Part shown: positions 1 to 17,207 of the stretch, one piece after another
How positions within the stretch are numbered: the stretch's first letter is position 1
Layout: the number at the start of each line of letters is the position of its first letter
NCBI GenBank assembly: GCA_938023735.1
Contig: CALJDK010000077.1
Coordinates: forward strand, 966-64,965
Length of the DNA: 64,000 nucleotides
From: an uncultured Acidimicrobiales bacterium
GTDB lineage: Bacteria > Actinomycetota > Acidimicrobiia > Acidimicrobiales > SHLQ01
Direction of reading: 5' to 3'
Position numbers and translations under genes: made by a program
The notes under the pieces: generated by a model
Seen by the model: the letters and a program-made list of their open reading frames with translations, nothing else
Told to the model about the DNA's origin: nothing
The model's database searches: none

Positions 1-926
1 AACAGGTTGGTTTCGTTGCACCACTGAAGGTTGGTCATCAGATCCGATGACTGGGTCGGGTTCTTCAGCGCCGAGCTATAGGCGAGTTGGTTGGCAAGCG
101 TGAACGCGATGTGATGCCAACGGATGGCATCGATATCGATCGGCTCGCCCGACAGTTCCTCGTACCGGGCGTACAGGGTATTCATGTCGCCGTATCCGAC
201 CACGGTGTCGCGCATCCGCCAGGCGGCTAGGTCCATCATCGGGTCGCCGATATGGCCGAGTTCCAGATCGAGCACCGCGACGATTTTGCCACCGGCGTGA
301 TGGAACTGGCCCGAGTCCCAAACGATGGGCGCCTCGCGTCCTTTCGAGTCGACCGGGTTTCGGCGAAGCCAGCCGAGGAAGAACTCGAGGAACGGGTCGT
401 GATGGTCTTTGAGAGCGCGGTAGTGCTCTTCGTAACGGGCGAGACCGATGAGTCCGGCTTGCGAAGGGTCGTCAGCCCGGCGAATCCCAGCGTCGCCAAA
501 TGGCTCGATCGGCAGCTTGTGGATCCGAGCCAGGATCGACAGGTAGTCGTCGACGGCAGCGTTGCGATCGGCATCGCTGGCCACAGCACCCCCCAGCTGC
601 CCGAAGTGTTCCTCGCCCGGCACCTTGTCCATCACATAGGCCGGAAGTTCATCGATCCAGCCCCGCACGGTCGCAACCGGAATGCCGTGGTCGCCAAGCA
701 CGCGCTGAAAGTTCATCTCATGCTCGAGCGGGTAGATCAGCGGCATATCGGTGCGGTCGCCCCGAACCACCATCTCTTGCTGCTGGCCGTCCTTCTCGAC
801 GGTGGCGAACCATACCGGGCGCCAACGCGTTTGGCGATGGAGGGATATGACCGAGCCGCCAAACTCATCATCGAACCAACGAACGATGTTGTCGTCGGCT
901 GCCGCTAGGGACTCGGTAGACATCAT
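1..926 (-). CDS. Phosphotransferase (APH/choline kinase-like) family protein, 3' end outside the window
   Basis: Not in the ORF track because it runs off the edge. Manual translation from ATG at 926 gives MMSTESLAAADDNIVRWF...WDSGQFHH...VLDLELGHIGDPMMDLAAWRMRD, an APH-like catalytic loop and DxE motif. Confidence 0.8.
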   Translation of the reverse strand, partial: MMSTESLAAADDNIVRWFDDEFGGSVISLHRQTRWRPVWFATVEKDGQQQEMVVRGDRTDMPLIYPLEHEMNFQRVLGDHGIPVATVRGWIDELPAYVMDKVPGEEHFGQLGGAVASDADRNAAVDDYLSILARIHKLPIEPFGDAGIRRADDPSQAGLIGLARYEEHYRALKDHHDPFLEFFLGWLRRNPVDSKGREAPIVWDSGQFHHAGGKIVAVLDLELGHIGDPMMDLAAWRMRDTVVGYGDMNTLYARYEELSGEPIDIDAIRWHHIAFTLANQLAYSSALKNPTQSSDLMTNLQWCNETNL

Positions 927-947
927 GAAGGTCACCCTACTTGGCAG

Positions 948-985
948 CAACTATGGGCCGTAGTTGACGACTATGGAAGTTCGTA
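948..985. promoter_or_regulatory. Putative operator copy 1: CAACTA-N7-TAGTTG palindrome followed by CTA-N7-TCG
   Basis: Perfect 6-bp inverted repeat at 948-966 in a divergent intergenic region; CTA 951, TAG 961, CTA 971, TCG 981. Confidence 0.65.
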
Positions 986-1058
986 ACCCGCACACTCGAC
1001 CGCCTTTCCTGCCGATCCTGAACGTACCGACAGTCCAGAGATGGTGATCCGCTCCCGG

Positions 1059-1095
1059 CTAACTAAGGTCCATAGCGTCTAGCTATTGATGTTCG
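1059..1095. promoter_or_regulatory. Putative operator copy 2 (CTA-N7-TAG-N7-CTA-N7-TCG)
   Basis: CTA 1063, TAG 1073, CTA 1083, TCG 1093; ends about 30 nt upstream of the amidohydrolase ATG. Confidence 0.6.
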
Positions 1096-1123
1096 GCCGA
1101 CGGTCGACGAACTGGGAGCTCCA

Positions 1124-2323
1124 ATGAAAGCAACCGATCGATTCACCATCATCTCGGCCGACTGTCACGCCGGCGGGAACCATGCGATGTATCGCGAGTA
1201 CCTCGATGCCGAGTTCCTCGATGAGTTCGACGCCTGGCGCGGCAAGTACAAGAACCCCTTCCGCGACCTGCAAGACGACGGGCGGAGCCGCAACTGGGAT
1301 GACGAACGACGAAACGATGACCTGTTCGCCGATGGCGTAGTGGCCGAAGTGGTTTTCCCAAACACGGTTCCGCCGTTCTTTCCCACCGGAGTCGTTGTGG
1401 CACCAGCGCCATCGCCCGAACACTTCCGGATTCGACTGGGTGGCATTAGGGCCCACAACCGGTGGCTCGCCGACTTCATCGGGCGCTACCCGAAGCAACG
1501 GGTAGGCCTCGCACAGATCCTCCTAAACGATGTCGACGAGGCAATCGCCGATGTCCGCTGGTGCCACGAACATGGCATCAAGGGAGTACTCCTCCCAGGC
1601 GTCTCCCCCGATACGCCGTGGATCGAACCACTCTCCTCGGCGGCCTATGACCCTCTTTGGGCGGTGTGCCAAGAGCTCGATATGCCCGTCACGCATCATG
1701 CGGGCGGCAGCGGCATTCCGCAGTTCGACGACACCCCCTTCCGTAACCTGTTGTTCATGATGGAGACAGGCTTCTACGCCAATCGAGCGTTCTGGCACAT
1801 GATCTGGGGCGGTGTTTTTGAGCGTTTCCCCCACCTCAAGCTGGTGCTGACCGAACAGGGCACCGACTGGATCAAGCCCGCCCTCAACCGCATGGAGCAC
1901 TTCTACAAACTGATGAAGAGCGGACGGGTGGGTGAACTCGGCATTCCAGCTGAGGCCATCGGAAAACTCAGCCCGGTCGAGACCTTCCAGCGCAACATCT
2001 GGATCGGCTCGAGCTTTCCTGCGCCCTCCGATGCCCTACTCATGCAGGAATACGGCATCGAGAACTTCATGTGGGGTAGCGATTACCCCCACAACGAGGC
2101 CTGCTGGCCCTACAGCACCAAGTCGCTTCAGCGTACTTTTCCCGGTTGGGAAACCGCCGACCTCACCAAGGTGCTTTCGGAAAACGCTGCCCATGTGTAC
2201 GGGTTTGACCTCGACGCGCTTGCGCCACTCGCCGCCCAGCACGGCCCCACTGCGGAACTGGTGGCGACGCCGCTCGATGAGATCCCTGCCGACGCATTCA
2301 GCCCCGCCTTCCAACGCGACTAA
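1124..2323 (+). CDS. Amidohydrolase_2 family protein
   Basis: ISADCH N-terminal motif, YDPLW, FERFPHLKLVLTE, WGSDYPH; GGGAG RBS upstream. Confidence 0.88.
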   Translation: MKATDRFTIISADCHAGGNHAMYREYLDAEFLDEFDAWRGKYKNPFRDLQDDGRSRNWDDERRNDDLFADGVVAEVVFPNTVPPFFPTGVVVAPAPSPEHFRIRLGGIRAHNRWLADFIGRYPKQRVGLAQILLNDVDEAIADVRWCHEHGIKGVLLPGVSPDTPWIEPLSSAAYDPLWAVCQELDMPVTHHAGGSGIPQFDDTPFRNLLFMMETGFYANRAFWHMIWGGVFERFPHLKLVLTEQGTDWIKPALNRMEHFYKLMKSGRVGELGIPAEAIGKLSPVETFQRNIWIGSSFPAPSDALLMQEYGIENFMWGSDYPHNEACWPYSTKSLQRTFPGWETADLTKVLSENAAHVYGFDLDALAPLAAQHGPTAELVATPLDEIPADAFSPAFQRD

Positions 2324-2332
2324 GGATCACCA

Positions 2333-3052
2333 ATGCCTCATTATGTTCCGCATTTCGACTTCACCGAGGAAGCACTGGCCCTTCGTCAGTTCAACTACGA
2401 ACACTGGTGCGAGCACGGTCGCGGCCCCAACCTTCGCGACGTGAAAGAGACCCTCGGTTTCGGGAGACGCCAAATAGTCCAGCTGTACAAAGAGCTCTCG
2501 CTCGGCATCGTGTGCACCGTCGACCCCGATTCGATGAACTGTCCCGTCCTCCGGTTCCAGCCCTTCGCGTCGTTCCCCACCCAAGTGAAGGCATTCGTCG
2601 ACGGCGAGTTCCACAGCTATGCCGGGTGTTCGATGGAGGCGGTGGCGTTCTCCAACATGCCCCCGTTCAAGGACCGCGAGTGTCGACTCGAGAGCTACTG
2701 CATGTGTTGCCTCGAGCCGATCTCGTTCACCGCGCTCAATGGAAAGGTGGTGTCGGCCGACCCGCTACTCCTGCACGTGAGCACGTCGCCCTATGACTGG
2801 TTCAACAACGACCTGATGATCCAGTGCGACTCCATGAATTTCGTTATCGATCAGGACCACGCCGAACGGTTCGAGCTCGAAACCTGCCGTCGCGGCGTGG
2901 TTTACACGCTCGACCAGGCGCTCACCTTCGTGCAGAACTCGGTGGGTGAACGCATGTACAACCGCAATCGGCCGAGTGAACGCATGGATCCGGAAGTGGT
3001 TATCGATTACGTGAAGACCCTTGGGGTCGACGTCACCAACTGGGGAGGTTAA
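2333..3052 (+). CDS. MerB (organomercurial lyase)-like protein
   Basis: N-terminal wHTH-like segment, PFASFPT, YAGCSME (MerB YAWCALD), ESYCMCC, QCDSMNF (MerB FCCHVHF); 10 Cys; AAGGA RBS. Confidence 0.7.
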   Translation: MPHYVPHFDFTEEALALRQFNYEHWCEHGRGPNLRDVKETLGFGRRQIVQLYKELSLGIVCTVDPDSMNCPVLRFQPFASFPTQVKAFVDGEFHSYAGCSMEAVAFSNMPPFKDRECRLESYCMCCLEPISFTALNGKVVSADPLLLHVSTSPYDWFNNDLMIQCDSMNFVIDQDHAERFELETCRRGVVYTLDQALTFVQNSVGERMYNRNRPSERMDPEVVIDYVKTLGVDVTNWGG

Positions 3053-3054
3053 GC

Positions 3055-3996
3055 ATGCCCGACGCAACAACGTCCGAAACTCAGAAGTCAGGGTTCGAGG
3101 CTGGAATGCCCGAGGACATCGGCATTATCGACCTGATGATCGGCTTGCCGTTTACCGACAAAAGCGCGGTCTACGCGAAAGCGGTGAAGGGCTTGAAGGA
3201 CGAGGGCTCTAACGACCTCTCGATGCCTGCCGGCTATATGTTCACCGAAGCTCCCGACGAGATCGACGCTACCGAAGTCGACCCGGTCGACATCACTTTT
3301 GGCGAGATGGACAAATACGGGATCGAGCAAGGACTGTTCGGACTGAGCGACCGCTCGATCGACGCAGCCCAGCGGCATCCGGGACGGGTCAACTTCATCA
3401 TCGAGGTCGACCCCAACGACATCATGGGCGCTATCAAGATCGTCCGCGACGCGAAAGCCGAGCACGACCTCAAGGCCGTCAGCGTGTTCCCGGCGGGCTG
3501 CATGCCCCAGGTTCCGGTGAACGATCCCAAGATGTACGCGCTATATGCCACAGCGGTGGAGCTGGACATCCCCGTGGTAGTCAACGCAGGCATTGCTGGC
3601 CCTCGCCTTCCGAGCGCCTGCCAACATGTCGAACTCTTCGACCCGGTCTGTTACGACTTCCCCGACCTGAAACTGGTGATGCGTCATGGGGCCGAGCCGT
3701 GGGAGGAATTGGCGGTGAAGCTGATGCTCAAGTGGCCTAACCTGTACTACATGACATCGGCCTTTGCGCCGAAGTACTACCCCAAGGCCATCATCGATTA
3801 CGCCAACAGTCGGGGTGGCGACAAGGTGATGTACGCCGGGTACTTCCCCGCAGGCTTGAGCGTTGAGCGACTGATGACCGAGATGCCGAATGTTCCGCTG
3901 AAGGATCACGTTTGGTCGAAGTTCCTACGCGAGAACGCAATGAGGGTGTTCGGGATCGACCCGCCCCCGCCGCCGCTTCTGCATCGGCCTGACTGA
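3055..3996 (+). CDS. Amidohydrolase_2 family protein (YAGYFP subtype)
   Basis: MYALYATAVELDIP, FPDLKLVMRHGAEPW, KWPNLYYMTSAFAPKYYP, FLRENAMRVF; GGAGG RBS. Confidence 0.85.
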   Translation: MPDATTSETQKSGFEAGMPEDIGIIDLMIGLPFTDKSAVYAKAVKGLKDEGSNDLSMPAGYMFTEAPDEIDATEVDPVDITFGEMDKYGIEQGLFGLSDRSIDAAQRHPGRVNFIIEVDPNDIMGAIKIVRDAKAEHDLKAVSVFPAGCMPQVPVNDPKMYALYATAVELDIPVVVNAGIAGPRLPSACQHVELFDPVCYDFPDLKLVMRHGAEPWEELAVKLMLKWPNLYYMTSAFAPKYYPKAIIDYANSRGGDKVMYAGYFPAGLSVERLMTEMPNVPLKDHVWSKFLRENAMRVFGIDPPPPPLLHRPD

Positions 3997-4058
3997 CCAC
4001 TACCCTGCAGCCGCGGCCGGAATGCGGTTTATCGAGGTGGTCATTTGATCAACCGCCG

Positions 4059-4997
4059 ATGACGATGCAGGATCGACTCATGTCTGTGGCACCGCCGAGC
4101 CCAATCCCCCGTTTGGGTCCCAGCTCTTCGGAGGCCGATCTGCGCGATGCGTTGAGCGAGGCCGGCTGTTGTGTCGTCGAGCAGGCTGTTTCCGCCGAGG
4201 TCATGGATGCCGTCGCGGCCGAGATGCTCCCGTTTGTCGATGCGACTGCGTTTGGCACAACCGACTTCGCAGGCATCGGGACCCGGCGAACCGGACTTGT
4301 TGTTGGCCGGTCGAGGACGTTTCGTGATCATCTCGCCCGGCACCCCTTCGTTGTTTCTGCAGGCGATCACGTGTTGGACAGCGCGCTGGTGTGGAACCTC
4401 TCGTTTGCGCACTTCTTCGAGCTCTTTCCCGGCGAGCCGGCACAGTTACTCCATCGCGACACCTGGAAGTATGGCGCTCCGCCCTTCCCCGCCGAGGTCG
4501 ACCTCAATGCGCTTTGGGCGGTGACCGACTTCAACGAAACAAACGGGGCGACTCGGCTGGTTCCCGGAAGCCACCTGTGGGATGACGACCGGCGGCCGGT
4601 GCCGGGAGAGGACGTTGGAGCGTTCGCCCCAAAGGGTTCAGTGCTCTTCTACACCGGCAAAGTCTTCCACGGCGGCGGCGCCCACACCGGCGACGCCGAT
4701 GCCGAAGACAGTGTTCGACTCGCCGTAAACGCGCAACACAGCGTGGGGTGGCTCGGCCAGACCGAACGGATGCTGCTCGAATATCCACCTCACGTGGCGG
4801 CGAGCTGGGATGATGACCTTCTCCGTTTCATTGGGTACCAACGAACCGGCCCAGCGTTGGGTCATTGGCGCAACGCCGAAGATCCGTTCCTCGCGATCGA
4901 GGAATACCGGATGGCGAACCCGTCCGCCGCAGCAGTACCTCCCGAAACAGTGCCCCCAAAAACAGTGCCCCCAAAAAAGGAAAGTCCAACATCGTGA
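4059..4997 (+). CDS. Phytanoyl-CoA dioxygenase (PhyH) family Fe(II)/2OG oxygenase
   Basis: PGEPAQLLHRD (HxD), DFNETNGATRLVPGSHLW, FHGGG distal His. Confidence 0.88.
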   Translation: MTMQDRLMSVAPPSPIPRLGPSSSEADLRDALSEAGCCVVEQAVSAEVMDAVAAEMLPFVDATAFGTTDFAGIGTRRTGLVVGRSRTFRDHLARHPFVVSAGDHVLDSALVWNLSFAHFFELFPGEPAQLLHRDTWKYGAPPFPAEVDLNALWAVTDFNETNGATRLVPGSHLWDDDRRPVPGEDVGAFAPKGSVLFYTGKVFHGGGAHTGDADAEDSVRLAVNAQHSVGWLGQTERMLLEYPPHVAASWDDDLLRFIGYQRTGPALGHWRNAEDPFLAIEEYRMANPSAAAVPPETVPPKTVPPKKESPTS

Positions 4998-5917
4998 AAT
5001 TTGCTTGGGGTTACCCGTTTATGAGCTGCCCGCCCGTCGACGAGTTCCTGTCGTGCGATGCGATGATGACCATGGCGGCCGGCGCAGAATCAGCAGGTTT
5101 CAGCGCAGCGTATGTGACCGAGCATCCAGCACCGGCCGAGAAGTGGCGTCAGACCGGCGGACACGACGCGCTCGATCCCTTTGTTGCACTGTCGTTCGCG
5201 GCTGCCGCCACGTCGGAGCTTCGACTTCTCACCAACCTCACCGTGGTGCCGTTCCGGAACCCGTTTCTGCTGGCGAAGGCGGTGGCCACGCTCGACAAGC
5301 TGTCAGGTGGCCGGGTCACGCTCGGAATGGGTACTGGCTATATGAAGGCCGAGTACTTCGCACTCGGCGTCGACTTCGACGAGCGCAACGCTCTGTTCGA
5401 CGAGTCGATCGAGGTGATGAAGCTCGCGTGGAGCGGCGAACCAGTTACCTACGATGGGCTGCATTTTTCGGCACGCGACATCACCTCGCAGCCCATGCCA
5501 GCGAGCCAGCCTCACCCGCCCCTCTGGTTGGGCGGAAACTCGAAGCTCACCCGTCGCCGCGTGGCCGAGTGGGGTCAGGGATGGATGCCGATGCCCAACC
5601 CGGCGCAGTACGCCAAGGGCCGACGATCGCCAGCGCTGGAGACGAACGATGAGTTGCGCGACATGCTGGCCTACATGCACGACCACGCCGCATCGGTCGG
5701 CCGAACCGACCCGATCGACGTGATGTACATGTGCTTCGATGGCGGTGAGCCTGGAAAGCCGGGTTGGAACGCGCAGCAACACCTCGAGGCGCTCTACGAA
5801 CAAACCGAAGCTGGCGTCACGTGGACGGCGGCGAATGGCTCGGGAGATAGCCGAGCGGAAGTGCTCGAAAACATGGCCCAGTACGGCGAAGAAGTAATTG
5901 CCGTCCTGAACGCGTAA
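4994..5917 (+). CDS. LLM class, probably F420-dependent, oxidoreductase
   Basis: AESAGF..VTEH, LDPFVALSFAAAAT, RNPFLLAKAVATLDKLSGGR, PPLWLGG; GTG start at 4994 overlaps the upstream TGA (GTGA). Confidence 0.88.
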   Translation: MKFAWGYPFMSCPPVDEFLSCDAMMTMAAGAESAGFSAAYVTEHPAPAEKWRQTGGHDALDPFVALSFAAAATSELRLLTNLTVVPFRNPFLLAKAVATLDKLSGGRVTLGMGTGYMKAEYFALGVDFDERNALFDESIEVMKLAWSGEPVTYDGLHFSARDITSQPMPASQPHPPLWLGGNSKLTRRRVAEWGQGWMPMPNPAQYAKGRRSPALETNDELRDMLAYMHDHAASVGRTDPIDVMYMCFDGGEPGKPGWNAQQHLEALYEQTEAGVTWTAANGSGDSRAEVLENMAQYGEEVIAVLNA

Positions 5918-5935
5918 GCCGCTGCAGGTGACGGG

Positions 5936-6763
5936 CTAACTCGCCGGCAGCCAGCCGATGCCGGCTGCGGCCATGGTTTGTTCCAATGCATCGCGGGCGG
6001 CGCTGGCCGCAACGTCGGGCCGCACTTGGTCGAGAACCTCGCCGAAGACCTCGACACCGATCGGCGGAAGCGGGCCTCTAGCGGCTAGGTCCTTCAAGCG
6101 GCGCGCAAGCTGTGCGTGACCAGCTCCGGGTAGCTGGCGAAGCGTCATGCACTCGTCGCGTACATTCGGCCACGGCTGCTCGATGGTGTCGGCCAGTTGG
6201 ATACCCAAGATCCGAGACATCGGGATAGAAGGATCCAGCACGCCGCCGTCGGGGCCGCGAACGTGGTGCCAGAGGTCGAGAAGTACGCCACCGTTCGAGC
6301 GGTCGGCTGCTTCCGCAATGGCCACGGCATCAGCCGTCCGGCCAAGGCTCGACCAGGCGAACGGTTCGATATGCACCACGATCCCGTGTTCGGCTGCAAG
6401 GTCGCATCGTCGTCCAAAGGCAGAAACCGCCGCGGCGAAATGACCGGCATCGTTTGGTTCGTACTCGCCGGTCTCGACGATGGTGATTGAGTAGGCATGC
6501 AACGCCACCGCGATGGTGAGGGCTTCATCAAAGGCGGCTGTGTCTTCCAGCGTGATGGCCACACCATCGACCTCGGCGATCCGCACGCCCAGTTCGGCAC
6601 ACATCGCGGCGAGATCGACGCCATTGTCGACCGCTTGGTGATACTCGTGGCCATATACCGACACCATGTCGAATCCTGCCGACGCCGCTGCACGCAACTT
6701 GTCGGCAAGGGGCGCTGAACCAAGCGATCCGCTGCACAGCACCAGCGGAGGGCGACTGGTCAC
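5936..6763 (-). CDS. Sugar phosphate isomerase/epimerase (xylose isomerase-like TIM barrel)
   Basis: AAASAGFD, HIEPFAWS, LLDLWH, QLAD, RQLPGAG, GVEVF; start trimmed to GTG 6763 just after the upstream SDR stop. Confidence 0.8.
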   Translation of the reverse strand: MTSRPPLVLCSGSLGSAPLADKLRAAASAGFDMVSVYGHEYHQAVDNGVDLAAMCAELGVRIAEVDGVAITLEDTAAFDEALTIAVALHAYSITIVETGEYEPNDAGHFAAAVSAFGRRCDLAAEHGIVVHIEPFAWSSLGRTADAVAIAEAADRSNGGVLLDLWHHVRGPDGGVLDPSIPMSRILGIQLADTIEQPWPNVRDECMTLRQLPGAGHAQLARRLKDLAARGPLPPIGVEVFGEVLDQVRPDVAASAARDALEQTMAAAGIGWLPAS

Positions 6764-6773
6764 CGACGACCTG

Positions 6774-7661
6774 TCACAGCGTCTTTGGCCGGTTGGTGAA
6801 CCGCCCGGCGTCGGGGCTGTAGAACCATCCGCCTCCCGCCTTTGTGCCGCCGTCGACAGGCACATTGTGGCCGGTGACGTACGACGACATATCCGACGCC
6901 AAGAACAACGCCACACGAGCCTGATCGGTAGGCCAACCGAGCCGCCCGGCCGGCGCCCACGACTCCCAGAGTTCTTCGTGGTCCTCGAAGCCGGCGACGT
7001 AGTTGACCTGGCGGGATTGGGTGAGGTCAACGCCGATGCCGTTGGCTCGAATGCCTTGGCGCCCATACCCGGCCGACAACGAAGTCGTGAAATGAGCCAC
7101 CGCAGCTTTAAGCGAGGCATAGACCGGCTCGCCTGGGAATCCCCGCATGCCCTCGACCGAGTGCACGTTGACAATCGAACCGCCGCCGCGTTCGATCATC
7201 GGGGTGAGGAACGCCTGGGTAACGGCATACACGTGCCACAGGTTGATGCGGTACATCGCTTCCCAGGAATCGGGGTTCGAATCATGGAACCGCACGAGCG
7301 GCCGGTAGTCGCCGACGTTGTTGACGAGCACGTCGATGCCACCGTGCGCTTCGAGCACCGTCGATGTGAACTCATTCACGCCCTCTTCAGTCGTCACGTC
7401 CACGACATGCGCACGAGCAGACCCGCCGGCCGCCGTGATGGTGTCGACCGTTGATGCAGCGCGGTCGGGGTCGACTTCAGCAATCTCGACGATGGCGCCG
7501 TGTTGGGCGAACAGCTCCGAGATCGCTCCGCCGATGCCCTCGGCACCGCCGCCGGTGATGGCAGCGACCTTGCCATCGAGAAGCCGGGTCCAATCGTGGA
7601 TTGGTGGCACCGAGCCCGGGTCGGTTGGGCTGGTCCCGCTCGGCCCTGAGTTGCTACTCAT
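6774..7661 (-). CDS. SDR family oxidoreductase
   Basis: TGGGAEGIG, LVNNVG, YASLK (YxxxK), GHNVPVDGG. Confidence 0.9.
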   Translation of the reverse strand: MSSNSGPSGTSPTDPGSVPPIHDWTRLLDGKVAAITGGGAEGIGGAISELFAQHGAIVEIAEVDPDRAASTVDTITAAGGSARAHVVDVTTEEGVNEFTSTVLEAHGGIDVLVNNVGDYRPLVRFHDSNPDSWEAMYRINLWHVYAVTQAFLTPMIERGGGSIVNVHSVEGMRGFPGEPVYASLKAAVAHFTTSLSAGYGRQGIRANGIGVDLTQSRQVNYVAGFEDHEELWESWAPAGRLGWPTDQARVALFLASDMSSYVTGHNVPVDGGTKAGGGWFYSPDAGRFTNRPKTL

Positions 7662-8755
7662 GAAGCTCCTTGATCAAGGTTGCGCCACGCGCCGCCGTCG
7701 AGCGACGAGGAGCGAATGGCATCGATGACCCGCTGTGTGGCGAGCCCATCGGCGAAGGTTGGCGTCGGCGGCATGTTGTCGGAAGTGTTGTCGGAAGTGT
7801 CAGCGCCGGTGATTTCGTCCCGCAACCGCTCGGCGAGCCGCACAAACAACGGCATCTCGAACGCGGTGAAGGCGTGTTTGGGGTCGCTCTTGTCGAAGTC
7901 GGGGCTATCGGGCGGGACGAGCTCGGTCGGAATCTCAAGCTCGTGCACGTCGGTGCCGTTCGATAGATGCGCTCCACCGCCATCGAGTGAGATCGTTCCT
8001 TCGGTTCCGATGACCTTGCACACGCTCAGCCCTTGCCCTCGAACCCCCGAGCAGTGCTGCACCGAGATCGACACGCCGCTTTCGGTATGCATGAGCGCCG
8101 AATACGTATCTTCGGCTCCACCCTCGAGCGGCGTGACCTGCCTTGTGTCGCCGCTTACTGACACGATTGGGCCAAGCCAGGTGTGGAGCCGATCGAGCAC
8201 ATGCACCCCGGCTGCGTTGAGGATGCCGCCGCCTTGCGAGGCATCGCCCCACCACGTTTCGTTGAACGCGGTCGGCAACCCGTTGGCTACCAAACCGCTA
8301 TGGCTCACGAAGGTCGCCGCCCGCGGCTCGCCAATGTCGCCGCGGTGAATTGCTCGAGCTACCAGAGCCTCAGCGGGCTGCCACCGAAACTCGAATGACA
8401 CCATCGCGGTCACACCAGACGCTGCGGCCGCGTCGGTCATCTCCTGAGCTTCCGCCACCGACAGCGCGAAGGGCTTTTCTGCCAGCACATGGCAACCGGT
8501 AGCCACAGCTTCCATGACCGATGCATGGTGCGCCGCTGGCGGCGTGGAGACCGTGACCACATCGCCGCTGGTAGCCGTGGCGACGTCGGTGATCGAGGTG
8601 CCATGGGTTTCGATGCCAAATGCTTGCGCTCGGTCGGCTGTTCGCTGCGGGTCCTGTCCCACCAGGCCCACCACCTCAAACCCCGCGGCACGCAGGGCCG
8701 GCACGTGTACCCGTCCACCAAAGGACGTTCCTACAACGACTGCTCGCAAACTCAT
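7658..8755 (-). CDS. Gfo/Idh/MocA family oxidoreductase
   Basis: VVGTSFGG, HVLAEKP, GGGILNAAGVHVLD; ATGA overlap with the downstream SDR. Confidence 0.9.
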   Translation of the reverse strand: MSLRAVVVGTSFGGRVHVPALRAAGFEVVGLVGQDPQRTADRAQAFGIETHGTSITDVATATSGDVVTVSTPPAAHHASVMEAVATGCHVLAEKPFALSVAEAQEMTDAAAASGVTAMVSFEFRWQPAEALVARAIHRGDIGEPRAATFVSHSGLVANGLPTAFNETWWGDASQGGGILNAAGVHVLDRLHTWLGPIVSVSGDTRQVTPLEGGAEDTYSALMHTESGVSISVQHCSGVRGQGLSVCKVIGTEGTISLDGGGAHLSNGTDVHELEIPTELVPPDSPDFDKSDPKHAFTAFEMPLFVRLAERLRDEITGADTSDNTSDNMPPTPTFADGLATQRVIDAIRSSSLDGGAWRNLDQGAS

Positions 8756-8771
8756 CGCAACACGCTCCTCG

Positions 8772-9509
8772 TTAGCTGGTGATGGCGCCGCCGGCCAGCG
8801 GAATCGTCTGTGCCGTCATCCACGAGGCTTCGTCAGACGCCAAATAGGCGCACAGGGCGCCAAGATCCTGTGGGGTACCGAGGCGACCAGCCGGGATCGT
8901 CTTGGCCAACCCCGACGTAACGTCGCTGCCGCCGGCGTTCGACATGAGGCCGAGGGCAATGGAGTTCACCGTTACGCCTTTGCGGGCAACCTCGAGCGCC
9001 ACCGATCGAAGGAGCGCCGCGGCGCCGCCTTTCCCGGCCGAGTAGGCGGCAACGCCGATGTGCACCCCTTGGGTTCCTGCGCCCGAGACGACGCCGATCA
9101 CGCGCCCCCAACCCTGCTCGATCATTCCGGGCAGAACGGCATGGGTGCAGTTCATCACTCCATCCAGATTCACCGCCAGCGGCGCCACCCATTCATCGGG
9201 GGTGGTGTCGACAAAGGCGCGCGGCGCCATGCGCTCGGCACCCGCGTTACCTGCGTTGTTGACGAGGATGTCGATGGTGCGGCCACCGAGAGCGGTGCGC
9301 ACTGCATCGAGGTCGGTGACGTCGAATGGCATTGCTTCGGCACGGTGACCCTCTGTTCGGAGTCGTTCGACAACCGCCTCGGCGCGGTCGCTATCGATGT
9401 CGTTGACCAGCACATGGGCGCCCTGCGTGCCAAACACCTCGGCGACACCGGTACCCATACCCTGGCCGGCTCCAGTCACGAGAGCGGTGCGCTTGCTGAG
9501 GTCAAACAT
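8772..9509 (-). CDS. SDR family oxidoreductase (FabG-like)
   Basis: TGAGQGMG, LVNNAG, YSAGK. Confidence 0.9.
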   Translation of the reverse strand: MFDLSKRTALVTGAGQGMGTGVAEVFGTQGAHVLVNDIDSDRAEAVVERLRTEGHRAEAMPFDVTDLDAVRTALGGRTIDILVNNAGNAGAERMAPRAFVDTTPDEWVAPLAVNLDGVMNCTHAVLPGMIEQGWGRVIGVVSGAGTQGVHIGVAAYSAGKGGAAALLRSVALEVARKGVTVNSIALGLMSNAGGSDVTSGLAKTIPAGRLGTPQDLGALCAYLASDEASWMTAQTIPLAGGAITS

Positions 9510-9513
9510 TGGG

Positions 9514-10368
9514 TCAGGGTGCGATCAGGTAGTCGGGCGGAAAGTCATCAGGTTGCCAACCTTCGAGCAGCTGTTTGCCGTCGAGAGTCCGCACGGGGAG
9601 GTTATGTCGTTTCAGGAACGACAGGCTGTATTCGATGAGCCCGGTGAAAACTGCCGGGTCACCCGAAAGCAGCGCCCAAGCCGACTCGGCCATCGCATCG
9701 AGTGGCTCGTTGGGATACTTCGACAGATCGACAAGTGCCGAGCTGCCCTCGGTGATAACCGAGGTGTCGGGCGACAAGCAGTTGAGTGATACGCCGGTGC
9801 CGAACAGTTCGGCGGCTGCACCCACGGTTGCTCGCTCCAACCATGCCTTCGAGCCGCCGTACGCGGTGGCCCCTTTGATCTGATCGGGCACCCTAAACGG
9901 AGGCCCGTGGGGCCTGATTGCGGTTTGCGACGTGAGGTTGAGCACCGACCCGCTCCCCCGTTCGACCATGGCCGGAATCACCTGCTGAGCAAGCAGCCAC
10001 GGCGCCGCAACGTTCACCCGGAACGACACTTCCATGCGCTTCCGAGGCATCTCGAGATAGCTAGGGTAGAACGCCGCGGCGGCATTGTTTACCAGGTAGT
10101 CGATAGAGCCCAGCTCGTTTTCTGTCTGGGCGATGACCGGCACCGGGTCGAAGTCGGGGTTCGATAGATCGGCCGCGATGGCGTGCGCAATCCCGCCTGC
10201 CTCCTGTATCTGTCGGACGGTGCCGGCGAGCGAACCATCGAGATGAGAATCGCCGTCAGCGAGTGTGCGCGCTACACAAGCGACAGCGCACCCTTCGGAC
10301 GCAAGACGTCGGGCAATAGCCGCGCCGATGCCGCGGCTCGCTCCAGTGACCACAGCAACGGGCATCAA
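9514..10368 (-). CDS. SDR family oxidoreductase
   Basis: TGASRGIG, LVNNAA, YGGSK. Confidence 0.9.
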   Translation of the reverse strand: MMPVAVVTGASRGIGAAIARRLASEGCAVACVARTLADGDSHLDGSLAGTVRQIQEAGGIAHAIAADLSNPDFDPVPVIAQTENELGSIDYLVNNAAAAFYPSYLEMPRKRMEVSFRVNVAAPWLLAQQVIPAMVERGSGSVLNLTSQTAIRPHGPPFRVPDQIKGATAYGGSKAWLERATVGAAAELFGTGVSLNCLSPDTSVITEGSSALVDLSKYPNEPLDAMAESAWALLSGDPAVFTGLIEYSLSFLKRHNLPVRTLDGKQLLEGWQPDDFPPDYLIAP

Positions 10369-10378
10369 AGCTCACCGG

Positions 10379-11593
10379 TCACGAGATGGTGGCCAACAAC
10401 TCGTCAACCTGCTCGCACATAAAGCCAATGTGATCGGCGTTAAGTGCATGGAACACTGGAAGCGACAATGCTCGGTCCATCATACGATCGCAGTTCGGCA
10501 GCCCTCCCTCGGGTTGGCGGTGTTCGATATTGGCGAACGCTGGTTGCCGCAGCACGTTGCCGGTCCAGACCATTCGAGTACTGATGCCTCGATCTTCGAG
10601 GAACTTCTGCACGTCGTTTCGGCCCATGGCAAAGTCGTCGTCGAGGGTGAAACAGAAGCGCATCCAGGTGGTGTCGGTTTCGGGAGTGGTGTCACCTGCT
10701 GTCATGCCCTCTCTGGCCGCGAAGAAGTCGTTGAACTTGCTCCAGTTGGCCTGACGTTGGGCATTGAAGCCAGGAAGCTTGTCCATTTGCACCAGTCCGT
10801 AGGCCGCGCTCAGTTCGTTGGGCTCAAAGTTGTAGCCAATGTGGTCGAACACGAAGATCAGATCGTAGGGCGTGCCATCGGCGAGCTGGCCAAAGCGTTC
10901 GAGCTTGCCGTCCTCGCGCTTCTTTTTGTCGGAGCCGAACAGGAACCGCTCGGACTGGCGACCCCATCGACGAAGCGAGAGCGCCTCGTCGAACAGGTCC
11001 GGATCGTCGACGCCCACCAGCCCGCCGGTGCCACCGGCGGTCATCGCATGTGAACGGGCAAAGCTGGTGATGGAAATGTCGCTGCGAGTACCGGTTCGAG
11101 TGCCCCGCTGGTAGCTGTCGAGTACATCGGCAGAATCCTCGACCACCATCAGGCCGTGCTTGTCGGCAATTGTGCGAATCGCGTCCCAGTCGGGGCAGTT
11201 GCCACACAGGTTCGGCACCAGGATGGCCTTGGTTCGCGGCCCGATCATCGACTCGATCTGGTCGACGTCGATTTGGTACGTGTTGGGTGTGATGTCGGCA
11301 AACACCGGCACGATGCCCGATTGCACCATGGGCGCAATGTCGGTTGAGAAGCACAACGGCGAGGTGATGATCTCGTCGCCGCGTTCGAGATGCAGCAGGT
11401 CGATGGCGATTCGCAGAGCTGACGAACCAGAGTTCACCATCATGCCGTGCTTCTTCGAAAGGTACTCGGCGGTGCGACGCTCGAGCGTTTCGGTGGCCTC
11501 CCCGATCTCGAGGAGTGGGTTGTCGCGCATGACGGCCACGACAGCCTCGATTTCTCGCTCGTCGCCAATTGCCCCTGACTTCGGAAGTTCCAT
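10379..11593 (-). CDS. DegT/DnrJ/EryC1/StrS family PLP/PMP enzyme, His-type (RfbH/ColD-like dehydratase subgroup)
   Basis: VNSGSSA, PVFADI, VVEDSAD, TSFARSHAMTAGGTGG (His at the usual Schiff-base Lys), IGYNF; start placed at ATG 11593 (track ORF extends to 11614). Confidence 0.85.
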   Translation of the reverse strand: MELPKSGAIGDEREIEAVVAVMRDNPLLEIGEATETLERRTAEYLSKKHGMMVNSGSSALRIAIDLLHLERGDEIITSPLCFSTDIAPMVQSGIVPVFADITPNTYQIDVDQIESMIGPRTKAILVPNLCGNCPDWDAIRTIADKHGLMVVEDSADVLDSYQRGTRTGTRSDISITSFARSHAMTAGGTGGLVGVDDPDLFDEALSLRRWGRQSERFLFGSDKKKREDGKLERFGQLADGTPYDLIFVFDHIGYNFEPNELSAAYGLVQMDKLPGFNAQRQANWSKFNDFFAAREGMTAGDTTPETDTTWMRFCFTLDDDFAMGRNDVQKFLEDRGISTRMVWTGNVLRQPAFANIEHRQPEGGLPNCDRMMDRALSLPVFHALNADHIGFMCEQVDELLATIS

Positions 11594-11604
11594 GCCGGCG
11601 AACC

Positions 11605-11647
11605 TAGCACTCAACTATTGATCGTAGTTAGTGCCTACGCGGCATCG
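11605..11647. promoter_or_regulatory. Putative operator copy 3 (TAG-N7-CTA-N7-TAG-N7-CTA-N7-TCG) in the DegT/TetR divergent promoter
   Basis: GCACTCAACTA-TTGATCG-TAGTTAGTGC imperfect palindrome at 11607-11634; CTA 11615, TAG 11625, CTA 11635, TCG 11645. Confidence 0.7.
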
Positions 11648-11663
11648 CATCTACCCTACGGAT

Positions 11664-12230
11664 GTGGCTACCACCAGCAGGCGACTCTCCCGCCAGACCA
11701 TTGTTGACATTGCGGTTGAGATTGCCGACCAACGGGGTCTCGCGGCGGTCACACTCGCCAACGTAGCCAGCGAGGCCGGCTGCAAAGCCCCGTCGCTCTA
11801 CAACCATGTCGATGGCCTCGATGACCTCCTCGACGATCTCTGTCTGTTCACCACAGCCGATTTTGCCAACGCACTCCGCGACTCGGTGGTGGCCAAAGTC
11901 GGACGCGATGCGTTGTCGTCGTACGCCAATGCGTGGCGGTCCTATGTGCTCGACTACCCCGGCCGCTATCAGGCCACCCTCCGGCTCATGCCCGGGCGCC
12001 GCGACGAACACCTCGCTGCGGCGATGGGCATGACCATCCCGGCCGGGTCGATGCTTGCCACCCTGGGTATTCCCGATCACCGTCTCGACGACGCTGGTCG
12101 AGCACTCCGAAGTGGCCTGCACGGATTCTCACACCTCGAACTCGCCAACAACATCGGCCCCGACCCGGCCTCGAGTTTCGACGCGGTCGTCGAGGTGCTC
12201 ACGTCGGGGCTTCTCTCACTCGCCGACTAG
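11664..12230 (+). CDS. TetR/AcrR family transcriptional regulator (WHG-like C-terminal domain)
   Basis: LSRQTIVDIAVEIADQRGLAAVTLANVASEAGCKAPSLYNH HTH; RSGLHGFSHLE; start at GTG 11664 (or 11631). Confidence 0.9.
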   Translation: MATTSRRLSRQTIVDIAVEIADQRGLAAVTLANVASEAGCKAPSLYNHVDGLDDLLDDLCLFTTADFANALRDSVVAKVGRDALSSYANAWRSYVLDYPGRYQATLRLMPGRRDEHLAAAMGMTIPAGSMLATLGIPDHRLDDAGRALRSGLHGFSHLELANNIGPDPASSFDAVVEVLTSGLLSLAD

Positions 12231-12290: not shown

Positions 12291-13907
12291 GTGACCATGA
12301 TCACAAGCACGATGCAGGCCGACGACCTTTCGATCACCCACATTTTTCAGCATGGCCGCAAGATCCATGCCGACTCGGAGATCCTGACCTACAACGGGCC
12401 GGACGAACCGATTCATTCGATGACCTTCGCCGAGATCGGCGATCGAGTCGACCAACTCGCCGCGGCCCTCAGCAAGCTGGGGGTGAACGTTGGGGATCGA
12501 GTCGGAACGTTTATGTGGAACAACCATCGCCATATGGAGGCCTACCTGGCTATCCCGTGCATGGGCGCTGTTCTGCACACCCTCAATATCCGGCTCTTTC
12601 CCGAGCAACTGGCCTACGTCATCAACCACGCCGAAGACAAGGTCATCATCGTCGACGCCAGCATCGCTCCCCTGCTGGCCAAGGTTCGCGAGCAACTCAC
12701 CACGGTCGAACACATCATCGTGTGCGGCGAGGGCGACACCTCGGGTCTCGGTGCGACCGTCGACTACGAAGAGCTTCTCGCCGCCGAAGAGCCCGGGTAC
12801 GACTACCCCATCGTTGACGAACGCTCGGCCGCCGCCATGTGTTACACCAGCGGCACCACCGGCAACCCCAAAGGTGTGGCGTACTCGCATCGGTCAACCT
12901 GGATTCACTCGCTTGCCGTCACCTCGTCGCAGACGCTGTCGGTCAACGAAGACGAGCGGATCCTGCTCATCGTGCCGCAGTTCCACGCCAACGCCTGGGG
13001 AATGCCCTACGCCGCCTGGTGGGTCGGCTGCGATCTGGTAATGCCCCAGCAGTTTCTGCAGGCCGGTCCCGTGGCCGACATCATCGAGGCCACCCGGCCC
13101 ACCATTTCCGGCGCCGTTCCCACCGTGCTGGCCGACCTGCTGCACAACCGGCCCGATGCCGACCTGAGCTCGATCCGCTACATCGTGTGCGGCGGATCAG
13201 CCGTTCCTCGAAGCCTGATGGAATCCTACGACGAGGTATTCGACACCGAAGTCGTGCAGGCATGGGGCATGACCGAAACCAGCCCGCTCGGTGCAATCGC
13301 CCGGGTACCCCGAACCAACTCTGGCGATCCGTTCGACTACCGGGTCAAGACGGGCCGGGTACTCCCCGGCGTCGAGATTCGCATCTGCGCCGACGACGGC
13401 TCGGTACTGCCCTGGGATGGCGATGCAGTTGGCGAAATCGAGATTCGTGGCCCGTGGATCACCGGCGCCTACTACCTCGACCCAACCGAAGAGAAGTTCC
13501 ACGATGGCTGGCTTCGAACCGGCGACGTCGGTGCCATCGACAAAGAAGGGTTCATACAGATCACCGACCGAGCCAAAGACGTCATCAAATCGGGCGGCGA
13601 GTGGATCAGCTCTGTCGACCTGGAGAACGAACTCATGGGCCATCCCGCCGTCCGCGAAGCAGCGGTAGTTGGCGTACCCGACGACCGTTGGGATGAGCGA
13701 CCGTTGGCATGCATCGTGCTCAACGAAGATGGCAGCGCAACGGTTGACGACCTTTCGGCCTACCTCACCGACCGGGTCGCGAAGTGGTGGCTCCCCGAAC
13801 GCTGGACCTTTATCGACGAGATCCCCAAGACGTCAGTCGGAAAATTCTCGAAGAAGGATCTGCGGGCGTCCTACGCGTCGGGTGAGCTTGAGGTCGAGAC
13901 GATATAG
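12291..13907 (+). CDS. Medium/long-chain fatty acid--CoA ligase (AlkK/DmdB-like)
   Basis: [49 protein letters not shown]. Confidence 0.92.
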
Positions 13908-16025: not shown

Positions 16026-17207
16026 TCAGGTGCGGCGACCGGCCCGCTCGGCGAAGTCATCGAGTGCCGCCAATACTGCGTCGGCCTGCCACACCCGGTT
16101 TCTCGAGTATCCGCTGGTCTCGGTGAGTACCCCGCCCTCGACCAGTTTGTCGATGGCGCGCAAAGCCGTTGGCGCAGGCACGCCCAGGAGTCGTTGGATC
16201 GTTGGGCTATCGATGACGGGCAGCCGCAACAACAAGTCGGCCACTTTCCAGACACCAGCATCGGAGCGGGCGGTGATGTGCGTCGACCAGGCTGACCGGG
16301 CCTCCGAAAGCGACTCCGACAGTCGAGTTGCGTTGCTGATTGCAACGAACGAAGCGTTGGCGACTGCCTCGACGATGGGATCGGGGTCGCCGCTCCGGAA
16401 CGCCCCAAGCGCTTCGAAATACTGGTCGGTGTCGGCCAACAAGCCAGCCGACACTGGCACCGTGACGTTTTCGATGAGTCCCTTTGCCCGAAGCATTGCG
16501 TGCATCAGAGCGCGCCCTGTACGTCCGTTGCCGTCGGGGAACGGGTGGATCGTCTCGAATTGGGCATGCGCGATGGCCACGTGGGCCAGCACCGCAAAGT
16601 GATCGTTGTCGATGAACGACATCAGGTCGGTCATAGCGTCGGGCACGCGGTCGTGGTGCGGCGGCACGAAGTCAGCCCGGTGCGGTCCAAAACGGGTGCC
16701 GCCGATCCAGACCTGTTCGTCGCGCCAGCGGCCAACAATGTTCGGAGCGGAGTCCTCGAGAAGCGCCGCGTGGGTATCGAGTATCGCCTGAGTATCCAGG
16801 TTGTCTGCCAGCGCGATGGCCGCCTCCATGGCCCGAGTGTTGGCCACAATGATCCGAGCATTCGGCGACCGACCAGCGTCGAGTTCGGCTAACGCGATGG
16901 CGCGAGCCGACGCGGTGAGGTTTTCGATCTGGCTCGATGCCGCAGACTCCGATCGGAGCAGCAGCGCCGAGAACGGCAGAATCGCCGCAGAATCGGCATC
17001 GAAGCGCACAATCGCTGCACTGGCATCGTCGACTAACGCAAGGGTCTCGGGCGAGAGCCCTAGCGAGGTGGCGGGAGCCAGTTGTGCGGGAATCGCAGCC
17101 TGATATGGTCCCGCGTGCTGGCGGCGCTGCGACCGCGACATCATGGTCGGGGCGCCAAGAGTCCACTCGCGCTGCTCAGAGCCGACTTCAGTGGAAACCA
17201 CAACCAT
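16026..17207 (-). CDS. Fic family protein (class II-like, with C-terminal HTH)
   Basis: Canonical HPFPDGNGRTGR; N-terminal SSQIEN inhibitory (S/T)xxxE(G/N) motif; C-terminal wHTH-like segment. Confidence 0.92.
   Translation of the reverse strand: MVVVSTEVGSEQREWTLGAPTMMSRSQRRQHAGPYQAAIPAQLAPATSLGLSPETLALVDDASAAIVRFDADSAAILPFSALLLRSESAASSQIENLTASARAIALAELDAGRSPNARIIVANTRAMEAAIALADNLDTQAILDTHAALLEDSAPNIVGRWRDEQVWIGGTRFGPHRADFVPPHHDRVPDAMTDLMSFIDNDHFAVLAHVAIAHAQFETIHPFPDGNGRTGRALMHAMLRAKGLIENVTVPVSAGLLADTDQYFEALGAFRSGDPDPIVEAVANASFVAISNATRLSESLSEARSAWSTHITARSDAGVWKVADLLLRLPVIDSPTIQRLLGVPAPTALRAIDKLVEGGVLTETSGYSRNRVWQADAVLAALDDFAERAGRRT

Follow-up and report, generated by a model that had tools for sequence, protein, structure and literature searches.

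Three tandem tetO-like sites in an Acidimicrobiales enzyme cluster and the TetR_C_33 protein predicted to bind them

Which protein, if any, reads the spaced triplets that recur at gene starts of an enzyme cluster in an uncultured Acidimicrobiales bacterium? We scanned the window (the whole stretch of 64,000 nucleotides that was analyzed) and found all 12 specified bases of CTA-N7-TAG-N7-CTA-N7-TCG at positions 951, 1063 and 11615, always on the + strand, confirming the three full-match copies (12/12 bases each) in a common orientation reported in the preliminary description. The palindromes said to extend the first unit at 948 and 11613 are both present. Copy 1 (948..983) comprises a perfect unit, CTA-N7-TAG (951-963), and a degenerate unit, CTA-N7-TCG (971-983), and is kept in the relatives G001, G002 and G003. 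Copy 2 (1060..1095; units 1063-1075 and 1083-1095) lies 5′ of the amidohydrolase operon and is kept in G001, G002, G003, G009 and L112. Copy 3 (11612..11647; units 11615-11627 and 11635-11647) lies between back-to-back promoters that are inferred to be leaderless, and all 10 orthologous intergenic regions keep it. Within the 64 kb, CTA-N7-TAG dyads occur at these three sites and nowhere else. With one mismatch tolerated, the window gave four matches, whereas 100 shuffles averaged 0.04 and never exceeded 1. The additional match, at 43048-43080 on the - strand, falls outside the eight best weight-matrix hits of the window and looks like a chance occurrence.

Genome-wide (4,677,851 bases, 211 contigs), the full pattern occurs exactly three times, all at this one cluster; the scan proposed in the preliminary description thus did not find it to be frequent elsewhere. 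The chance expectation from triplet frequencies is 0.028 copies, a post hoc figure because the pattern was derived from these copies. A position weight matrix (PWM) trained on 18 sites, all from other genomes, placed the three copies on top of the genome (38.5, 36.8 and 33.1 bits) with the best unrelated match at 14.0 bits, and 10 column-shuffled matrices used as a control reached maxima of 14.8–21.1 bits. Beyond the three sites nothing scored above 14 bits in this 91% complete genome, and a search for a wider regulon, one that a 21-bp variant would escape, thus came back empty. The single dyad CTA-N7-TAG is not enriched genome-wide (76 occurrences vs. 19–109 for other spacer lengths), hence the operator signal is local rather than global.

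At loci with a close orthologue of the TetR gene at 11664 the triplets are kept in 10 of 10 cases and the spacers have diverged. Pairwise identity among the 10 orthologous copy-3 sites is 100, 100, 100 and 81% for the triplets and 50, 58 and 52% for the spacers. This conservation in 10 of 10 intergenic regions, which the preliminary description had asked for, supports its operator reading of a perfect unit followed 20 bp on by a degenerate one, and the sequence observation as such is confirmed. The fourth triplet is TCG in 15 and TAG in none of 21 sites, and only CTA..T is invariant in the second unit. A LexA box has the form CGAAC-N4-GTTCG; such a box was rejected for copies 1 and 2, which end in GTTCG, as its left half is absent.

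The motif tracks the TetR and not the enzymes: enzyme-bearing relatives without this TetR are also without the motif. In G010 (94% complete) the RfbH-like gene (84%) and the amidohydrolase (87%) stand head to head, there is no close TetR, and no motif was found over 20 kb (best PWM score −0.3). No motif was found in G007 (85% complete), which has the amidohydrolase at 83%. In the rearranged clusters of G009, L112 and G097 the TetR gene is still inside. G097, however, has no operator between the phosphotransferase and short-chain dehydrogenase/reductase (SDR) genes despite the presence of the TetR, an observation that counts against the explanation that we favor.

The sole regulator among the cluster genes is a TetR-family protein of 188 aa (11664..12230, + strand), with Pfam matches to the N-terminal TetR helix-turn-helix (HTH) domain PF00440 (28.3 bits, cut-off 24) and the C-terminal TetR_C_33 domain PF13305 (51.1 bits, cut-off 26.8). 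Its AlphaFold model (pLDDT 81.6) has ten helices in an all-helical two-domain TetR fold, and Foldseek matched the model to 1zk8 (TM 0.84–0.89). The HTH aligns ungapped to TetR(D), in whose numbering the helix reads A28..A38-P39-S40-L41-Y42-N43-H44, and the recognition-helix residues are invariant among five orthologues. A tetracycline repressor proper (TetR classes B/D) was rejected: A28/A38 stand in place of R28/Q38, the tetracycline-repressor model NF010319 was not reached (23 bits, cut-off 265), and the inner bases differ from the CTATC half-site. Genome-wide there are 34 TetR_N matches, and five proteins belong to TetR_C_33; N43 occurs in none of the four other TetR_C_33 paralogues, which have S43 or unrelated helices. 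The C102 paralogue likewise has a CTA-N7-TAG site. To judge from the motif tracking this TetR and from N43 fitting the sites, four transcription units very likely have the 11664 TetR as their cognate repressor; the binder with a regulon that had been proposed is the best-supported candidate, and its predicted regulon is local, with three sites.

The predicted targets are an APH-family phosphotransferase (1..926, - strand; 452 aa, extending beyond the window edge), an operon for an amidohydrolase, a MerB-like protein, a further amidohydrolase, a PhyH dioxygenase and an F420-dependent LLM oxidoreductase (1124..5917, + strand), and an operon for an RfbH/DegT-family PLP enzyme, two SDRs, a Gfo/Idh/MocA oxidoreductase, an SDR and a xylose-isomerase-like TIM barrel (5936..11593, - strand). 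Between copies 1 and 2, a 14-codon SDR gene remnant (1005..1046, + strand) aligns with residues 211-224 of the SDR that is intact in G001 (268 aa), with a score reached by 0 of 2000 shuffles; the two copies are close together because the intervening SDR gene was deleted. The acyl-CoA ligase at 12291 may be co-transcribed in this genome, but was rejected as a core member, since it is not beside the TetR in G001, G002, G003, G009 or other orthologous loci.

Likely -10 elements were located at three of these genes. That of the APH gene, TAGGGT (934..939, - strand), lies 7 nt before the start, and 4 of 4 genomes have the same hexamer 6–8 nt ahead of the gene. The TetR gene has TACCCT (11652..11657, + strand) 6 nt before its start, and the RfbH-like gene has the extended -10 TG-C-TAGGTT (11601..11609, - strand), whose offset from the operator ranges over 7–11 nt among lineages; at both genes, 10 of 10 lineages have TAnnnT 6–7 nt ahead of the start. 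We infer that the APH and TetR transcripts are leaderless. The extra in-phase TAG noted at 11605 is present but is not supported as a half-site: it reads TG-C-TAnnnT and is likely the extended -10, on the - strand, of the gene starting at 11593. A fifth operator half-site at 11605 was also rejected on its gap to the first CTA, which is N6, N7, N8 or N10 over ten lineages and in phase in 3 of 10. A sigma-70 consensus scan of 850–1200 gave no match, leaving the amidohydrolase promoter without a position.

An early family test that took in only 200 upstream bases gave a weak signal (6 of 67 loci, while an N9 spacer gave 5), since in most cases the TetR gene comes second in its operon. The upstream region was widened to 1.2–1.6 kb after this weak result had been seen, and was then checked on fresh loci; a phylum-wide search proved overly strict at E 1e-24. 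CTA-N7-TAG was found upstream of distant TetR_C_33 proteins (about 26–47% identical) in 17 of 23 clusters and then in 15 of 19 freshly fetched ones, vs. 0–3 clusters for other spacer lengths and 0–1 for downstream regions. None of 15 downstream genes checked at the distant loci matched genes of the window. Family operators are often tandem and 20–22 bp apart, most commonly 21 bp; spacings of 24 and 33–35 bp also occur, which are 51–120 degrees out of phase. The 10-bp phasing claimed earlier therefore holds for the three copies and fails as a general rule, the wider-family mode being 21 bp. A predicted tetO-like operator, often in tandem, is common to the TetR_C_33 proteins that have a P-S-L-Y-x-H helix.

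Residue 43 predicted the base flanking CTA in 29 of 31 clusters (equalled in 0 of 20,000 permutations, a test that overstates because residue 43 is clustered on the tree), and in 10 of 10 new clusters. The tree has 7 changes at residue 43; 4 are required for N43, and well-supported branches force 2 of those 4. N43 pairs with A, the base found before CTA at all 21 of the sites here; in G277 a sister TetR adjoining the same RfbH-like gene combines T43 with flank C. When residue 28 was compared with the inner base, R or K was present in only four clusters. A literature search covering few subscription papers found nothing relevant on the operator of this subfamily.

We consider it highly probable that each site is a tetO-like palindrome pair, with centres 20 bp apart, bound by the TetR_C_33 repressor at 11664, likely as two dimers side by side. 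One dimer would sit on the perfect unit and read TAG and the next base through P39/S40/Y42/N43. The alanines at 28 and 38 would drop the contacts that fix the tetO inner bases, leaving a loose N7 core; the preference for G-2/C+2 (15 of 21 sites) shows that the inner bases are not free, and the alanine argument gives no account of it. Roughly two turns of the helix further along, the weaker unit would hold a second dimer, perhaps with help from a dimer–dimer contact. Once bound, the repressor would lie across the promoter of the amidohydrolase operon and over the -35 side of three predicted leaderless promoters, those of the phosphotransferase, the RfbH-like operon and the TetR itself, and a substrate or intermediate of the cluster may be the releasing ligand.

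Known systems resemble this arrangement in part. tetO2, as given in PMC11686294, includes CTA-N7-TAG, and Tn10 tetO1/tetO2 share this core and are described as a pair of operators that differ in affinity and lie within divergent promoters subject to autoregulation (PMC8966031); here unequal affinity is predicted. The 11664 HTH keeps P39, T40 (as S), Y42 and H44 of Tn10 TetR, but has alanine at 28 and 38, loose inner bases and a TetR_C_33 C-terminal domain, and its units are 20 bp apart, in tandem at three enzyme-cluster promoters rather than at an efflux gene. PMC7102968 names R28/Q38, at +2 and +3, as the only hydrogen-bond base readers of TetR and reports that R28A in Tn10 TetR abolishes tetO binding, which implies that an A28/A38 protein must gain affinity by other means. 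Corynebacterium glutamicum AmtR is also TetR-family with CTAT half-sites, and its W43-equivalent was modelled against the base beside CTAT (PMC2723105), in agreement with the residue-43 correlation; AmtR, however, is a global nitrogen regulator and requires CTAT-N6-ATAG, one base longer. DarR, and QacR as cited there, place two dimers on one operator, one of them on a non-optimal site, and direct cross-dimer contacts are described for DarR (PMC10636190); two dimers are predicted here. DarR palindromes overlap within 20 bp, whereas our units are separate and span 33 bp; a DarR-type overlap was thus rejected, the centres being 20 bp apart. The best sequence and fold matches are the TetR_C_33 proteins 1zk8 of Bacillus cereus and SCO4313 (2oi8) (E 4e-19; TM 0.84–0.89). 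The SPSLYNHV helix is common to 1zk8 and the 11664 protein, and a search covering few subscription papers found no operator or ligand for 1zk8 or SCO4313.

Cooperative binding of the two dimers is plausible. The unit spacing is 20 bp in 10 of 10 copy-3 sites, although indels have moved the flanks (7, 8, 9 or 11 nt of offset on the left and 4, 5 or 6 nt on the right), and the non-homologous copies 1 and 2 also have 20 bp, though they were found via the pattern itself. The fixed spacing fits cooperativity, and a second unit with only CTA..T invariant offers little information for an independent site. The hexamers in the gap, however, mean that promoter geometry could set the spacing. The same repressor might bind the same sites as independent dimers, as at tetO1/tetO2, with 20 bp set by fitting a -10 or -35 hexamer between the units, a reading that departs from ours on cooperativity only and that we place slightly short of an even chance. 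TAnnnT falls in or over the gap of 11 of 12 perfect family tandems at 20–22 bp, TTGAC directly precedes unit 1 in 7 of the 12, the gap of copy 3 lies 17–18 bp upstream of the TetR -10 and that of copy 1 is TTGACG; the out-of-phase family spacings (24 and 33–35 bp) and the independent binding of tetO1 and tetO2 by TetR described in PMC11686294 point the same way. A literature search covering few subscription papers gave no direct precedent for same-face tandem TetR operators. A bolder extension of the cooperative reading is possible but doubtful: a large TetR_C_33 subfamily that has lost R28/Q38 might offset a 6–8 bp site via two touching same-face dimers, with paralogues separated by residue 43 (N-A, K-G, S-T, A/E/T-C) and spacing (20 vs. 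21 bp), and TCG would be a selected asymmetric outer half-site, not decay.

The sites could instead be read by the product of a gene outside the cluster, either a TetR paralogue or a tetramer of LysR type on the central ATAG-N7-CTAT (T-N11-A) with a strong and weak pair, which we regard as unlikely. The OxyR/LysR box is T-N11-A, and LysR-type sites pair a strong with a weak unit at a distance of two turns, giving four phased half-sites; the arrangement here fits this pattern, and the genome's complement of TetR_N and TetR_C_33 proteins and the C102 site would allow for a paralogue. The motif, however, is missing where the enzymes occur without the TetR at 11664, the family unit is a single CTA-N7-TAG and not TAG-N7-CTA, the paralogues have S43 or unrelated helices, and no LysR is found among the cluster genes. 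Activation of the leftward promoters by the TetR, or a mixed role there, is very improbable: the perfect unit does start just upstream of the -10s (7–11 nt for the RfbH-like gene, 11 nt for APH), but its distance varies by 4 nt among orthologues, which a polymerase contact would tolerate poorly, and family sites between -35 and -10 and over the start are repressor positions. Chance, or a by-product of TA-rich -10 elements in a high-GC genome, accounts for one claimed triplet (11605), yet the conservation of triplets vs. spacers, the loss of the motif in G010 though promoters remain and the family-wide N7 specificity largely refute it, and we give it almost no weight.

The predicted pair of operator and TetR is an ordinary kind of genetic switch, with a repressor-site match unusually clear from sequence; to a specialist it is neat more than surprising. 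A statistical TetR protein-DNA model was published before (PMC7736823), hence the idea of a code is not new. An uncharacterized regulator would be assigned a precise regulon of three sites, and one inducible unit would take in eleven enzyme genes from an uncultured lineage related to Acidimicrobiales. We judge the family result to be more useful: operators may be assignable across the TetR_C_33 subfamily from the shared operator form and the one residue that predicts the flanking base, and the residue-43 code suggests orthogonal repressor-operator pairs for biosensors.

The operator CTA-N7-TAG-N7-CTA-N7-TCG was found on re-reading at positions 951, 1063 and 11615, all on the + strand, as the preliminary description had reported, and these copies are the only CTA-N7-TAG dyads within the window. 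Copies 1 and 2 lie between the gene for an APH-family phosphotransferase (leftward from 926, − strand) and an amidohydrolase-led operon (from 1124, + strand). Copy 3 is flanked by an RfbH/DegT-family gene (leftward from 11593, − strand) and the gene for a TetR_N + TetR_C_33 regulator (from 11664, + strand). Both enzyme operons converge near 5920. The exact 12-base pattern occurs in the 4.68-Mb genome only at these three sites, against 0.028 expected (an expectation set post hoc). A weight matrix built from 18 sites of other genomes, orthologous to the window copies, ranked the three copies highest (38.5, 36.8 and 33.1 bits); the top unrelated genomic match scored 14.0 bits, and the maxima of column-shuffled matrices were 14.8–21.1. 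Because the training sites are orthologous to the copies, this rank is partly inherited, and the informative part of the scan is the absence of further matches. The genome also holds a single perfect 21-bp tandem, CTA-N7-TAG-N8-CTA-N7-TAG (G000:C83:464), ahead of a reading frame for a trypsin-like protease, where cross-binding is possible.

Close orthologues of the TetR (68–81%) were present in 4 of 41 other genomes of the family, in the relative G097, and in some of two sets of 9 and 59 loci. With repeated sequences counted once, ten lineages provided the RfbH-TetR intergenic region. The anticipated conservation upstream of orthologues was borne out, with CTA-N7-TAG-N7-CTA-N7-T at 20-bp spacing in 10/10 regions. 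Pairwise identity of the copy-3 sites was 100, 100, 100 and 81% in the triplets and 50, 58 and 52% in the spacers. When copies 1 and 2 were added (21 sites), the fourth triplet was TCG in 15, TCA in 3, TTG, TGG or TGC in 1 each, and TAG in 0; TCG was also found in two distant relatives, there at 21 bp. In relatives G001 and G003, copies 1 and 2 are separated by ∼880–890 bp containing an intact 268-aa short-chain dehydrogenase (SDR) gene. Remnants of the SDR persist in the window (residues 211–224) and in G002 (residues 257–266; 0/2000 shuffles each), which indicates that the gene was lost in two separate events, both of which left the two operators in place. The phosphotransferase-SDR interval of G097 has no site, which counts against the footprint; a weaker site in reversed orientation covers its MerB-like start. 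At L112:12070–12170, only a short piece of the amidohydrolase start survives, with the upstream operator intact.

The RfbH-like gene (10/10), the TetR (10/10) and the phosphotransferase (4/4) each have a TAnnnT hexamer 6–8 nt ahead of the start codon, which suggests leaderless transcripts for all three. The extra in-phase TAG at 11605, previously counted with copy 3, is the reverse of TG-C-TA in the TAnnnT element of the RfbH-like gene and is in phase with the operator in only 3 of the 10 lineages; its reading as part of the operator is not supported.

The motif follows the regulator rather than the enzymes. Where the cluster is rearranged (G009, L112, G097), the TetR is still inside it. G010 (94% complete) carries the RfbH-like gene (84%) and the amidohydrolase (87%) head to head; it has no close TetR, and the dyad was absent from the 20 kb searched (best score −0.3). 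In G007 (85% complete), where the amidohydrolase is present at 83%, the motif was absent from the 5.9-kb contig. Among 30 amidohydrolase loci, 9 have the dyad upstream, 5 in genomes with the orthologous TetR and 4 directly beside a paralogous TetR. Because the genomes compared are incomplete and related, this co-occurrence amounts to two or three contrasts rather than a statistic. In the source genome (G000:C102:6699–8561; loci L031, L249), a second TetR_C_33 (40%, S43) and a paralogous amidohydrolase (57%) are divergently arranged. This TetR has a separate TCTA-N7-TAGA site, accompanied by a weak unit 21 bp away; the pairing recurs in G003, G006 and G017.

Across the TetR_C_33 family, 76 distant-homologue loci formed 26 clusters at 70% identity, 23 with at least 1 kb upstream. 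CTA-N7-TAG was present upstream in 17/23, one of them through 1 of 12 members, probably by chance; other spacer lengths gave 0–3 clusters and downstream regions 1. Perfect tandems at 20–24 bp occurred in 9 clusters vs. 0 in the control. In 19 clusters made solely of later-fetched loci, the dyad was present in 15 (other spacers 0–2, downstream 0), with perfect tandems within 30 bp in 3. Overall, 35/49 clusters have a perfect unit. Where there is another perfect unit, its distance is 20 bp (3), 21 bp (8), 22, 24 or 33–35 bp (4), and 18 clusters have a third CTA at 21 bp. No dyad occurs in the subgroup whose helix reads Q-P-A-L-Y-R-H. Upstream of loci L122, L124–L126, L137 and L150, two CTA-N7-TAG units overlap at 6-bp offset rather than forming a tandem, which may be a dimer-of-dimers arrangement on opposite faces.

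Two TetR dimers per site are likely, and the chances that they bind cooperatively are about even. In favour of cooperativity, the spacing remains at 20 bp while both flanks accept indels, and the second unit carries little information. Against it, most perfect tandems of the family have promoter hexamers in the gap, out-of-phase spacings also occur, and tetO1 and tetO2 are bound independently (PMC11686294).

The HTH of the window TetR aligns without gaps to TetR(D), retaining P39, Y42 and H44, with T40 replaced by S, W43 by N, and R28 and Q38 by alanine. The printed tetO2 includes CTA-N7-TAG (PMC11686294). In TetR, only R28 and Q38 read bases by hydrogen bonds, at +2 and +3, with van der Waals contacts contributed by P39, T40, Y42 and W43 (PMC7102968); in the AmtR model, the residue equal to W43 is placed at the base adjoining the CTAT motif (PMC2723105). 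Among 31 clusters with the dyad and P39-S40 (4/35, with a different helix, were left out), residue 43 predicted the flanking base in 29 (0/20,000 permutations equal), a statistic inflated because of kinship among clusters; elsewhere in the helix, only residue 37 gave a clear signal (17/31). On the tree, residue 43 needs 7 changes and N43 needs 4, 2 of them forced. A code trained on 19 clusters was correct in 10/10 new ones, and two more had an unseen residue. N43 pairs with an A flank, and the window-type sites have A before the first CTA in 21/21, T after TAG in 18/21 and A before the second CTA in 11 of 21. N43 is absent from the other four TetR_C_33 proteins of the genome. The clearest contrast is local: in G277, the same RfbH-like gene adjoins a sister protein (47%, support 96/98) that carries T43, together with a C flank and a weak unit 21 bp away.

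Several cluster proteins have features of their own. The APH-family protein (1–926, − strand, continuing on G000:C77 past the window edge; 452 aa) has a C-terminal extension of ∼140 residues past its Pfam domain. The DegT-family protein (10379–11593, − strand), whose top NCBIfam match is RfbH, under cut-off, shares a His with the CDP-sugar 3-dehydrase 3bcx at a position that is Lys in 3bb8; it is likely a dehydrase/deoxygenase, not an aminotransferase, a putative role at odds with its setting in an apparently catabolic cluster. The MerB-like protein (2333–3052, + strand), flanked by two amidohydrolases, matches Pfam at 39 bits, far under the NCBIfam MerB cut-off; it is 82–91% conserved in relatives and absent at the corresponding position in G009. 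No mer operon was found among the genes examined. A Fic/DOC-family gene (16026–17207, − strand) lies close to the cluster.

The literature searched gave no description of a TetR_C_33 subfamily operator; TetR operators have been predicted in bulk (PMC7736823; PMC10858194), and the supplements of these papers may list the motif. In PMC12224297, TetR_C_33 is linked to biosynthetic clusters. DarR binds overlapping palindromes, and the window sites are not of that type (PMC10636190). By analogy, they would work like tetO1/tetO2 (PMC8966031), whose regulator is likewise of the TetR family; the window TetR is not a tetracycline repressor. From family knowledge of repression and ligand, it is highly probable that this TetR would hold all four transcription units and its own gene repressed, and that a metabolite of the cluster would act as inducer.
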